5,539 nucleotides of DNA from a virus (taxonomy: Duplodnaviria; Heunggongvirae; Uroviricota; Caudoviricetes). Both the position numbers and the translations under genes were made by a program. Positions 1,345 through 4,980 of this stretch are shown here, one piece after another. Every line of letters starts with the position of its first letter. The stretch's first letter is position 1. A model generated the notes under the pieces. That model searched no databases. It was given only the letters and a program-made list of their open reading frames with translations, and was not told the origin of the DNA. The stretch is taken from the IMG/VR virus record IMGVR_UViG_2713896903_000003. One strand, 5' to 3'.

Positions 1345-1568
1345 GCTCCTCTCCTTTGATGCGAATGCCAGCGGTAATTGAAGCCTGATAGCTAATTTCA
1401 CTCACAGTACCGCCTCCTGAAAATTACCCTGATAGAAAGCCAGTACACGCTGCATAGCTTCGCTCTTCCGGCACTCGCGACAGATTATATTCAGGCGCCT
1501 GTCGTAGCGGCGTATTTCTCCGTCTGGTAATGACCAGATAAGGTCCGGATCAATCACAGATGTTTTCT

Positions 1569-1823
1569 TCAGATTTGCCCTTGAGAGTTTTTGCGGGCGT
1601 TTTGCCAGTCCTTACGGGCCTGTTCAGACGGGAATAACCCGTAGCCAGAGTTGTATACATCACCACTGGCAACCAGCTCTCTGGCGAGAATGCTCATCAG
1701 ATATCTTGTCGCACCTGTCTTGACTTCCAGTTGCCGTAACGTCTCACGCCCACTCTGGCGTACGAGTTCAACAACCTGCCCTTTAATTTTTTCTCGCTCT
1801 TCTTGTGTAAAAACTTTTGCCAC
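1569..1823 (-). CDS. Hypothetical small protein, 84 aa, possible HTH-like
   Basis: GTG start at 1823 with AGGAGG SD 4 nt upstream (minus strand). Directly downstream of the replication-initiator gene. No family recognised. Confidence 0.55.
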   Translation of the reverse strand: MAKVFTQEEREKIKGQVVELVRQSGRETLRQLEVKTGATRYLMSILARELVASGDVYNSGYGLFPSEQARKDWQNARKNSQGQI

Positions 1824-3005: not shown

Positions 3006-3431
3006 TCAATGCACAGCCACAATATTTCCTGCAGGGCCACCACGATTCATCTGGTTGAAACCAGCGATCGCCACTGCGACAAAATCATCAGCGTCTCTCA
3101 CCAGTCGCTCCCGCGTCTCCACCAGCTCCCGAAAATAAGCTGAACTGTGGCTGCGCATTCTGGCCACCAGCAAAGGTGGCATTGCCTTTTCGATCGCTGG
3201 TAACAACGCCTGAATTTTTTCAACTGCATCAGGGGTGTCTTTCTCTACCCAGCGGAAAATTTTCTGGGTATTGCGAGCCAGGGCTTCCGGATGGCTGTCG
3301 TCATACAGTTCAGGAAACGTCATACCCAACTCAAAATAAGCCTGGGTTATTCCAGCTGCTGGAACTTTTTCGCCATCAGGACGCGCCCAGGCATTCATCG
3401 CCATGCGGATGTGTTCATGCTTGATTTTCAT
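3006..3431 (-). CDS. ydaT: YdaT-like protein (functional CII equivalent of Rac/CP-933P-type prophages), 141 aa
   Basis: ATG at 3431 overlaps the TGA of the upstream HTH gene (ATGA). GGAG SD 8 nt upstream. Size and position, second gene after the Cro-like HTH, match the ydaS-ydaT arrangement. Name assigned from memory of that family, not from a search. Confidence 0.6.
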   Translation of the reverse strand: MKIKHEHIRMAMNAWARPDGEKVPAAGITQAYFELGMTFPELYDDSHPEALARNTQKIFRWVEKDTPDAVEKIQALLPAIEKAMPPLLVARMRSHSSAYFRELVETRERLVRDADDFVAVAIAGFNQMNRGGPAGNIVAVH

Positions 3432-3730
3432 GAATCAACTCCATCAGATAAGCATGCACTACAATCACCTTCAGCATGAACTACATGTGTTTGCCCCAAA
3501 CGAATACCGCTCGCATACTCAGGCCAAATAAGCTCCCAATCATGGGGTCGTAGCTCCGCCCTACTTACTTGGCCTTCCGTCGCAGATTCGATCATAAGGG
3601 CGCGGGTTGGAGATATAGCTGCTCGTCCAGACGCCATTTGCGATAAGTAAGATGGCGATACACCAAGTCTGGCCGCGAATTTCTTAGCATCACCAACCCT
3701 CAATGATTTAATAAACTCTTTTAATGTCAT
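3428..3730 (-). CDS. ydaS: Cro-like XRE-family HTH regulator (YdaS-like), 100 aa
   Basis: ATG at 3730 with GAGGAAGG SD. HTH signature (AKKFAARLGVSPSYLSQMASGR). Divergent from the repressor gene across an operator-rich intergenic region; translationally coupled to the downstream gene. Confidence 0.7.
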   Translation of the reverse strand: MTLKEFIKSLRVGDAKKFAARLGVSPSYLSQMASGRAAISPTRALMIESATEGQVSRAELRPHDWELIWPEYASGIRLGQTHVVHAEGDCSACLSDGVDS

Positions 3731-3827
3731 ACCTTCCTCGGTTTAGTGTTTTTTTGCGAGTTTAGTGTTTAATAAACCATTAAGTCAAGTATTTGCTTGT
3801 TTAGTGATTACTAAAGATAATTACCAC
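3731..3827. promoter_or_regulatory. Divergent promoter/operator region (OR-like genetic switch)
   Basis: Three direct GTTTAGTG repeats (3741-3748, 3760-3767, 3799-3806). Perfect inverted repeat GTTTAaTAAAC (3767-3777). Imperfect palindrome TTAGTGATTACTAA (3801-3814). Leftward candidate promoter: TTGACT (minus, 3788-3783) with TAAACT at 18-nt spacing. Rightward candidate promoter: TTGCTT (3793-3798), 17 nt, GATAAT (3816-3821). Confidence 0.6.
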
Positions 3828-4199
3828 ATGCAAAAAAAAGAAATTCGCCGTTTACGTCTCAAGGAGTGGTTTAAAGATAAAACTCTGCCACCCAAAGAGA
3901 AGAGCTACCTATCTCAACTAATGAGTGGGAGGGCCTCGTTTGGAGAAAAGGCTGCCAGAAGAATAGAGCAAACATACGGGATGCCGGAAGGGTATCTGGA
4001 TGCGGAATACGCAGAACAACCGGAAGCTTCTCCACCACATGCGGGGTTAACGTCTAATCAACTGGAATTATTGCAGATTTTTTCAGCCTTCCCTGAGGAT
4101 GAGCAACGCCAGATAATCAGCGAGTTAAAGCAGAAAAAAGAATCAATGGAAGATCTCATAGCGAGATGGATTGCGGCGCAAAAATGCCGCCGCGCCTGA
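3828..4199 (+). CDS. paaR2: Prophage repressor / transcriptional regulator of the three-component TA operon (PaaR2-like; DicA/cI functional analogue), 123 aa
   Basis: ATG at 3828 preferred over the GTG at 3765 used by the ORF track. No SD, and the -10 ends 6 nt upstream, suggesting a leaderless mRNA like lambda cI from PRM. N-terminal HTH-like segment (LSQLMSGRASFGEKAARRIEQ). Divergent to the Cro-like gene. Symbol from memory of the CP-933P module. Confidence 0.65.
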   Translation: MQKKEIRRLRLKEWFKDKTLPPKEKSYLSQLMSGRASFGEKAARRIEQTYGMPEGYLDAEYAEQPEASPPHAGLTSNQLELLQIFSAFPEDEQRQIISELKQKKESMEDLIARWIAAQKCRRA

Positions 4200-4219
4200 G
4201 TTATAAAACCGGAGGAAAC

Positions 4220-4411
4220 ATGAATAGAGCCCTTTCACCAATGGTTTCTGAATTTGAAACCATTGAACAAGAAAACAGTTACAACGAATGGCTGCGCGCG
4301 AAAGTAGCAACGAGCCTTGCAGATCCGCGCCCAGCAATTCCCCATGACGAAGTTGAGCGCAGAATGGCAGAACGCTTTGCTAAAATGCGCAAGGAACGGA
4401 GCAAGCAGTAA
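4220..4411 (+). CDS. paaA2: Small antitoxin-like protein (PaaA2-like), 63 aa
   Basis: ATG 4220 with GGAGG SD. Stop TAA 4409-4411 lies 1 nt before the toxin ATG. Small, charged, likely partly disordered protein immediately upstream of a ParE-like toxin. The ORF-track start at 4166 is rejected as it has no RBS. Confidence 0.65.
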   Translation: MNRALSPMVSEFETIEQENSYNEWLRAKVATSLADPRPAIPHDEVERRMAERFAKMRKERSKQ

Positions 4412-4412
4412 A

Positions 4413-4691
4413 ATGTTACCCGTGTTATGGCTTGAAAGCGCAGATACCGACCTAGATGATATAACTAGTTATATTGCTCGTTTCGACATAGATGCGGCTG
4501 AACGCTTATGGCAGCGATTAAGGGGTTGTGTGCTGCCGTTATCCGAACATCCGTATTTATACCCACCAAGCGACAGAGTACCTGGCTTGCGTGAGATTGT
4601 AGCCCACCCTAACTATATAATTCTATACCGCGTAACAACATCAAGCGTTGAAGTAGTAAACGTGATCCACGCAAGACGCCAGTTTCCCTAA
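4413..4691 (+). CDS. parE2: ParE/RelE-superfamily toxin (ParE2-like), 92 aa
   Basis: ATG 4413 tightly coupled to the upstream gene. C-terminal pattern REIVAHPNYIILYRV...VEVVNVIHARRQFP is typical of ParE/RelE-fold toxins. The ORF-track start at 4317 would overlap the antitoxin gene and is rejected. Confidence 0.7.
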   Translation: MLPVLWLESADTDLDDITSYIARFDIDAAERLWQRLRGCVLPLSEHPYLYPPSDRVPGLREIVAHPNYIILYRVTTSSVEVVNVIHARRQFP

Positions 4692-4752
4692 CTTTCACTA
4701 CCAATAGAAACATAACAACCGCAACGACTTTATCAAAAGCGTTGTGTTTGTT

Positions 4753-4794
4753 ACGCCCCGTGGTTTAGTTTTTACTTGACTTAAGTTTAATGTT
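4753..4794 (+). promoter_or_regulatory. OL/PdicB-like rightward promoter with operator: TTGACT (4766-4771), 16 nt, TAAACT (4788-4793); inverted repeat GTTTAtTAAAC (4782-4792); GTTTAGT half-site (4753-4759)
   Basis: Sequence cttgacttaa...gtttattaaac is the reverse-complement counterpart of 3767-3789 in the OR-like region, so the same repressor likely binds both. Oriented toward the ydfA-like operon. Confidence 0.5.
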
Positions 4795-4980
4795 TATTAA
4801 ACTAAAAAATACCAACCCCCCCCGCCCCACAGAACGCCGGGCAATACTTCGAGTTACCAGGCAGTGGTCAGGGGTTAAGTAGCCAGCCCGAGGCGTAAGA
4901 ACATGACGGCAGGGTTCAACTTTAACTATGCAGCAGGTTTTTGTTCCGCTACCCCGGCGTTAAGGGGAAATGAGGTCAAC

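Follow-up and report, generated by a model that had tools for sequence, protein, structure and literature searches.

Identification by sequence of a paaR2-paaA2-parE2 toxin–antitoxin operon in the immunity region of a lambdoid E. coli prophage

Judged by sequence identity, positions 3828–4691 of a 5,539-nucleotide stretch of Caudoviricetes DNA (IMG/VR virus record IMGVR_UViG_2713896903_000003; hereafter the window, meaning the whole stretch analyzed) are the known paaR2-paaA2-parE2 toxin–antitoxin (TA) operon, lying in the immunity region of an E. coli lambdoid prophage. We consider it very probable that the operon belongs to an immunity region of the CP-933P/Sp12 type and acts there as an addiction module. 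The gene order, the sequence identity, and the promoters and operators are established for the window itself. The published DNA binding, repression, bistability, toxicity, neutralization and killing would be expected to carry over to the mosaic prophage from which the window comes. Nothing is new in the identity of the operon, and the locus is among the best characterized three-component TA systems, all three of its proteins being represented by crystal structures and its regulation by a published model. The original prediction had named this operon and called it probably described; the protein comparisons agreed on the identity, and its points of interpretation are indeed published (PMC8630535, PMC9986795). 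The additions made here are small: the mosaic context, the prevalence (633 of 5426 genomes), the linkage of paaR2 with the TA pair, and an intact module in the coliphage Evi.

Three co-directional open reading frames (ORFs) form the operon, and the ORF list and sequence place them exactly where they had been predicted:

3828–4199, + strand: paaR2, from ATG at 3828 to the stop at 4199; a 123-amino-acid helix-turn-helix (HTH) repressor, the functional equivalent of CI/DicA
4220–4411, + strand: paaA2, from ATG at 4220 to TAA at 4411; a 63-amino-acid antitoxin without a DNA-binding domain
4413–4691, + strand: parE2, from ATG at 4413 to TAA at 4691; a 92-amino-acid toxin of the ParE/RelE superfamily

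A gap of 20 nt separates paaR2 from paaA2 on the same strand, with the paaA2 ribosome-binding site, GGAGG, at 4211–4215, four nt 5' of the start codon. Only base 4412 lies between the stop codon of paaA2 and the start codon of parE2. Both features had been read correctly in the original prediction, as had the charged character of the 63-residue protein, in which a sequence count gave 23 charged residues out of 63 (11 Asp/Glu and 12 Lys/Arg).

All 92 residues of ParE2 agree with the crystallized E. coli O157 toxin (PDB 5CW7_B/5CZE), and the protein matched the Pfam ParE_toxin model PF05016 with E = 1.9e-16 and 60.9 bits (cut-off 23); more distant PDB matches were 3KXE (E = 3.6e-5) and 6X0A (E = 6.2e-5). 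PaaA2 is identical over 62/62 residues to the crystallized PaaA2 (PDB 3ZBE/5CW7) and matched the Pfam PaaA2 model PF21217 (E = 1e-19), both Pfam matches lying above the gathering scores. No HTH, ribbon-helix-helix (RHH) or AbrB model matched PaaA2 in the Pfam profile search, and the protein has been described as having no DNA-binding domain (PMC8630535). The NCBIfam name for PaaA2, 'RelB family antitoxin', follows a naming convention and is no evidence of a DNA-binding fold. The structures 3ZBE, 5CW7 and 5CZE of the paaR2-paaA2-parE2 locus are reportedly the work of Sterckx et al. in 2014 and 2016. Residues 1–65 of PaaR2 are identical to its solved N-terminal domain (PDB 7NKV, 8C3K and 8C3L); 'Phage repressor protein CI', the PDB title of that domain, denotes PaaR2. 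Residues 68–119 matched the NCBIfam DicA model in its C-terminal part (E = 8e-7, under the curated cut-off), with PaaR2 scoring 28.9 bits against a family cut-off of 101. The resemblance is consistent with the term 'cI/DicA equivalent' used in the original prediction.

The locus combines a toxin of the ParE branch, a PaaA-family antitoxin encoded upstream of it and an HTH regulator gene in first position, which is the arrangement of the three-component paaR-paaA-parE systems. ParE2 has its fold and family in common with the toxins of RK2 ParDE, Caulobacter ParDE1 (3KXE) and V. cholerae ParDE2. However, the antitoxin of canonical parDE systems is the RHH protein ParD, whereas here it is PaaA2, and regulation is left to a separate repressor. 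By its profile matches, PaaA2 appears to fall outside the canonical ParD–ParE class, in which the antitoxin carries an RHH domain and autoregulates. PaaR2 likewise appears to lie outside the lambda CI/LexA-type repressors: no Peptidase_S24 match was found in its 123 residues by Pfam profile search. Since the S24 peptidase domain is absent, PaaR2 would not be cleavable by the RecA/SOS route, and published work on PaaR2 also found no S24 motif and no response to mitomycin C (PMC8630535).

On the opposite strand, next to paaR2, lie the genes for two further regulators and an operator site:

3428–3730, − strand: ydaS, a Cro-like regulator of 100 amino acids that forms the bistable switch together with PaaR2
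3006–3431, − strand: ydaT, a 141-amino-acid CII-like activator of PRE
3421–3438: OM, the primary operator of YdaT, TTGATTTTCATGAATCAA, at the ydaS/ydaT junction

In Pfam, YdaS matched YdaS_toxin (E = 3.9e-12) and HTH_3 (E = 1.4e-6), with weak matches to P22_Cro and Cro, and YdaT matched YdaT_toxin (E = 7.3e-10). The site at 3421–3438 agrees exactly with the published OM sequence, 5'-TTGATTN6AATCAA-3' (PMC9986795). Since on average 0.43 OM matches with up to two mismatches are to be expected by chance, the weight of this finding rests on the position and the exactness of the match. YdaT has been described as a CII-like regulator with OM as its operator (Prolic-Kalinsek et al. 2023, PMC9986795), and a PRE-like promoter is activated by YdaT (PMC8630535).

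The operon is bracketed by two control elements, with a candidate terminator between parE2 and the second of them:

3731–3827: OR, a divergent control region of 97 bp with PR, PRM and operator half-sites
3788–3783 and 3764–3759, − strand: PR, with hexamers TTGACT and TAAACT (consensus promoter scan)
3793–3798 and 3816–3821, + strand: putative PRM from reading of the sequence, with −35 TTGCTT, −10 GATAAT and +1 at the A of the ATG at 3828
3741, 3760 and 3799: GTTTAGT-type operator half-sites in OR (repeat search)
3799–3816: 18-bp palindrome in OR
4713–4753, + strand: candidate operon terminator, a stem-loop with a U-rich tail
4763–4803, + strand: PL/OL element, 3' of parE2, with −35 TTGACT at 4776–4781 and −10 TAAACT at 4798–4803
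4763–4776 and 4785–4802: OL operator-like repeats (repeat search)

That these two elements are related, as the original prediction held, was borne out by several observations. The PR and PL hexamers found in the promoter scan are identical and stand in mirror orientation. Two inverted repeats, a perfect one of 12 nt and one of 37 nt at 70%, link OR and OL, and a five-member family of GTTTAGT-type direct repeats occupies both (3741, 3760, 3799, 4763 and 4785). Exact GTTTAGT occurs four times in the 5.5-kb window, each time within the OR or OL element, against 0.52 expected, and none of 200 shuffles reached four. The window has each component of a CP-933P-type immunity region, namely a divergent ydaS–ydaT operon set apart from paaR2 by a 97-bp OR with PR, PRM and repeats, a second OL/PL cluster, and the YdaT operator. 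For the identical 97-bp sequence, footprinting with DNase I has been published for PaaR2 and YdaS, together with 5' RACE data (PMC8630535); it harbors four equally spaced 18-bp GTTTAGTAA-type repeats, and the stretches of it that the two proteins footprint overlap (PMC8630535). PL933P lies at the other end of the operon; it shares its −35 and −10 with PR, is accompanied by three OL operators, and in reporter assays was repressed ~100-fold by PaaR2 and by YdaS (PMC8630535).

The hairpin at 4713–4753 is plausibly an operon terminator resembling lambda t_imm. The predicted fold of the 4688–4765 RNA has −18.9 kcal/mol (z = −3.15), a stability reached by 2 of 200 shuffles; a simple terminator scan called no + strand terminator 3' of parE2. 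An Rfam scan of the whole window gave nothing at gathering thresholds, which speaks against the involvement of any known sRNA or antisense RNA element. With respect to base composition, the region had been judged by eye to be more AT-rich than the replication genes, and this is weakly true: its GC content of 0.464 lies below the 0.539 of the O-like replication gene, but the window as a whole has 0.480 and several of its other genes 0.35–0.47.

The window was aligned with the CP-933P/Sp12-type prophage of O157:H7 strain TR01 as reference. parE2 has no nucleotide difference; PaaA2 has no amino acid difference and two nucleotide differences; and PaaR2 agrees at 121 of 123 residues, the differences being E66G and A67G. 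Both substitutions come immediately behind the stretch of PaaR2 (residues 1–65) that agrees fully with its solved N-terminal domain. Over the three genes, the distance from the published system amounts to two amino acids, both in PaaR2, and seven nucleotides. The 97-bp paaR2–ydaS intergenic region is identical at every base, a few base differences lie just outside the PL/OL core, YdaS has one amino acid difference, and YdaT differs at 23 of 141 residues (84% identical). Gene order, spacing, the PL/OL element, the divergent ydaS–ydaT pair and the OM site are all common to the window and CP-933P/Sp12 (RAE2 locus).

However, the window can be aligned to the O157:H7 prophage only at 3010–4970, from ydaT to just past PL, and at ydfC. 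Its replication module encodes a 358-amino-acid 'phage replisome organizer' and a DUF977 protein, whereas that of CP-933P encodes an O-like HTH protein and a DnaC-like ATPase; its PL operon begins with ydfA(DUF1391)-ydfB-ydfC, whereas that of CP-933P begins with ECs_2282/ydfC. The DUF977 gene is frameshifted in the window. At 99% identity or more, the window was covered by no record among complete E. coli genomes, phages and plasmids; the best whole-window match had 92% coverage at 96.4% identity, and complete E. coli genomes topped out at ~96–97%. Thus, the window represents a mosaic relative, distinct from CP-933P. Given the YdaT differences and the other flanking genes, the quantitative behavior of the switch could differ from that of CP-933P.

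The functional framework comes from CP-933P, where PaaR2 acts as a repressor of both PR933P and PL933P and controls its own promoter, PRM933P (Jurenas et al. 2021, PMC8630535). The paaR2 mRNA from PRM933P is leaderless, and the protein N-terminus, MQKKE, was determined experimentally (PMC8630535). PaaR2 and YdaS each repress PR933P and PRM933P; at low PaaR2, PRM is activated and PR is repressed (PMC8630535). The locus is bistable (PMC8630535). Two of the original proposals, that the regulator is the cI/DicA equivalent for both early operons and that it forms a bistable switch with a Cro-like partner, are hence already on record for CP-933P (PMC8630535), the former with no difference peculiar to the window. 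As to the TA pair, PaaA2 is labile to ClpAP and ClpXP and sequesters ParE2, free ParE2 joins the nucleoid and induces SOS (PMC8630535), and the region stabilized an unstable mini-F plasmid through post-segregational killing (PMC8630535). According to the account in PMC8630535 of Hallez et al. 2010, the locus is a three-component TA system whose operon is regulated by PaaR2; for proteins identical to those of the window, the same account gives ParE2 toxicity, PaaA2 neutralization and Clp-dependent post-segregational killing.

Based on these findings, we propose a plausible mechanism for the window. The operon would be read in the order PRM, paaR2, paaA2, parE2, with OR/PR and OL/PL flanking it and facing outwards. 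PaaR2, made from the leaderless PRM transcript, would bind the GTTTAGT-type operators in OR (3731–3827) and OL (about 4763–4803). At low levels it would repress PR (ydaS-ydaT-replication) and PL (the ydfA/B/C side) and activate its own promoter, which it would repress at high levels. A bistable switch would result because the Cro-like YdaS competes with PaaR2 for the same operators, and YdaT, acting in the manner of CII on OM at 3421–3438, would activate an alternative promoter of the operon. paaA2 and parE2 would be co-transcribed with the repressor, at the position of lambda rexAB. PaaA2, labile to ClpAP/ClpXP, would sequester ParE2 in a tight complex. Upon loss of the operon, PaaA2 would decay and ParE2 would be freed, followed by its association with the nucleoid, SOS induction and cell death. 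Since freed ParE2 would kill cells that lose the operon, the TA pair would act as an addiction module stabilizing the immunity region or the prophage. Such stabilization is probably the selected function, a view whose published basis is plasmid-stabilization assays.

The original prediction also held that toxin expression is tied to the lysogeny decision. This stands with respect to promoter control but does not extend to ParE2 activity. In single-cell work, the TA pair was transcribed in both states of the switch, and ParE2 activity, followed as SOS induction, was detected in neither (PMC8630535). As far as is known, toxin activity is therefore uncoupled from the lysogeny decision.

The arrangement follows the same logic as that of phage lambda, with a leaderless repressor gene and two accessory genes on one transcript. 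The flanks are also the same, with two operator clusters, outward early promoters, and Cro-like and CII-like partners on the opposite strand. Nonetheless, no similarity in sequence to CI, Cro, CII or RexAB could be detected for the proteins of the window, and the S24 peptidase domain of CI has no counterpart in PaaR2. Lambda has three operators, whereas the paaR2 region has the four 18-bp repeats (PMC8630535), and the cargo is RexAB in lambda but a ParE-type TA pair in the paaR2 operon. The analogy with the rexAB position, drawn in the original prediction, had already been stated (PMC9986795). In the Qin dicA-dicC switch of E. coli K-12 (ydfA-ydfB-ydfC-dicF-dicB operon), the repressor occupies the same position as PaaR2, and homologs of ydfA, ydfB and ydfC lie on the PL side of the window too. 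The C-terminal part of DicA resembles that of PaaR2, whereas the N-terminal HTH differs. Qin is not known to have a TA pair after dicA.

The distribution of the module was surveyed by megablast in 5426 complete E. coli genomes. The TA pair was present in 633 of them (~12%), at 99% identity or more in 586 of the 633, while paaR2 together with OR was found in 593 genomes and the whole 1070-bp module, at a coverage of at least 80%, in 595. The module is almost always single copy per genome, and in about 40 genomes the TA pair is diverged and the PaaR2 regulator is absent. Compared as totals and at megablast sensitivity, these genome counts suggest a handful of TA-less paaR2 copies at most, and the distribution fits a strong linkage of paaR2 with the TA pair. 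Beyond the E. coli genomes, Escherichia phage Evi (LR597642), which was isolated from infant feces, carries the module at 98.5% identity and with an intact parE2 ORF. The PaaR2 immunity type is thus not confined to cryptic prophages.

The position of the TA pair also bears on what it may be for. Instead of serving mainly in addiction, paaA2-parE2 could be above all a device for rexAB-like anti-phage exclusion or abortive infection, expressed by the lysogen from the repressor operon and triggered when another phage infects. Many type II TA systems, some of them of the ParE/RelE superfamily, have been reported as phage defense. The pair sits downstream of the repressor in the rexAB position, is intact in an isolated temperate coliphage, and shares a transcript with the repressor gene in lysogen-like cells (PMC8630535), all of which would suit such a role. 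However, none of the three proteins matched a defense model of PADLOC-DB at E ≤ 0.01, a literature search found no phage-defense or phage-challenge phenotype of paaR2-paaA2-parE2, and the phenotypes described in print are post-segregational killing and plasmid stabilization (PMC8630535). We therefore regard exclusion as an unlikely main role, while an addiction module remains our preferred explanation. Exclusion and addiction are not mutually exclusive. The 'PAAR2' of a Burkholderia phage paper belongs to an unrelated T6SS cluster.

Two further readings question the immunity region or the integrity of the genes. PaaR2 and PaaA2 might be the two halves of a split ParD-like antitoxin in an autonomous TA module that landed beside ydaS-ydaT, with PaaR2 not a true immunity repressor. 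The lack of a DNA-binding domain in PaaA2 would suit this, as would the original three-component description with PaaR2 as operon regulator, in the form in which PMC8630535 cites it from Hallez 2010. We hold it to be very improbable, given that PaaR2 extends its repression beyond its own promoter to PR and PL (PMC8630535), sits exactly at the cI/dicA position and has a DicA-like C-terminus. Moreover, the OL operators are not part of the TA operon but border another early operon, and the ORF list of the window held no other repressor candidate between ydaS and the PL operon. That the three ORFs are decayed, non-functional remnants of a cryptic prophage is harder still to credit. The frameshifted DUF977 gene nearby and the description of CP-933P as defective (PMC9986795) point that way, but the ORFs are intact, their products are identical or nearly so to proteins that have been expressed, found toxic or neutralizing, and crystallized, and the high conservation of the TA pair in 586 of 633 genomes argues against decay.

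A more speculative idea concerns the pair in viable phages. It is conceivable, though we give it little credence at present, that the TA pair belongs as a fixed and functional component to an immunity type circulating also in viable temperate phages such as Evi, and that in lysogens it serves either in RexAB-like exclusion or abortive infection or as a safeguard, killing any cell in which recombination with a heteroimmune phage has replaced the immunity region. The scarcity of TA-less paaR2 suggested by the genome totals (593 paaR2 genomes among the 5426 searched) would fit a selected role of this kind.

The value of the present analysis lies in annotation. RefSeq labels PaaR2 a 'hypothetical protein' and PaaA2 a 'RelB family antitoxin', and YdaS and YdaT carry 'transcriptional regulator / toxin YdaT family' labels. 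Such names mask a switch of the CI/Cro/CII type, and the addiction module embedded in it, in ~12% of complete E. coli genomes. The intact parE2 of Evi is unannotated in the phage record.

Against the O157:H7 copy (CP-933P/Sp12-type prophage of strain TR01), the CII-like activator YdaT (3006-3431, minus strand) differed at 23 of 141 amino acids, with 79 of 426 nucleotides changed in the alignment. Its neighbours were far closer, with three nucleotide differences in ydaS, which encodes the Cro-like regulator, none in the divergent control region OR, and seven in all across paaR2-parE2. Because ydaT is so much more diverged than these neighbours, the alignment places a recombination breakpoint near the ydaS/ydaT junction, not far from the conserved YdaT primary operator OM at 3421-3438.

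The NCBIfam model for the DicA repressor, NF007257, matched residues 68-119 of the repressor PaaR2 with its C-terminal part (E = 8e-7), at a score of 28.9 bits that falls under the model cut-off of 101. The helix-turn-helix domains of DicA and PaaR2 are unlike, yet this match suggests that the two proteins share an oligomerisation domain. The toxin gene of the same operon recurs in Escherichia phage Evi, described as an isolated coliphage; the deposited record annotates paaR2 and paaA2 and leaves out parE2.

LR597642 (Evi), 4683-4961: intact, unannotated parE2 ORF, its product identical to the window's ParE2 at 92 of 92 residues

Two elements flank the early promoter PL.

4713-4753, plus strand: stem-loop followed by GUUUGUU, from RNA folding
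4813-4830: C-rich run CCAACCCCCCCCGCCCCA, a short way 3' of the PL -10

The stem-loop, located after the parE2 stop codon and before PL, has a minimum free energy of -18.9 kcal/mol (z = -3.15). It is a possible terminator that would keep the repressor operon insulated from the PL operon; a simple terminator scan of the window did not call it. The C-rich run falls within the leader sequence of the operon on the ydfA side; O157:H7 shows a single substitution inside it.

Repeats were found within the minus-strand replisome-organizer gene (1864-2940), whose O-like, 358-aa product had no matches in a Pfam search.

2465-2547: short tandem repeats, with 2.9 copies of the 12-nt unit TCTTTATCTGTA first and then 4.9 copies of the 10-nt unit GTCGTGACAC

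The tract is mid-gene and encodes a DKDTDKDTD stretch of the protein. By analogy with lambda O, which has gene-internal iterons, these repeats are the candidate counterpart and may represent origin iterons.

On the same strand, the DUF977 gene is divided between two reading frames with PF06163 profile matches (1402-1823 overall).

1569-1823, minus strand: ORF covering PF06163 positions 1-82
1402-1557, minus strand: ORF covering PF06163 positions 83-134

The gene is probably a frameshifted pseudogene, and its split state hints at decay of the prophage. RefSeq likewise annotates the DUF977 gene of the closest genome (rl0044) as a frameshifted pseudogene.
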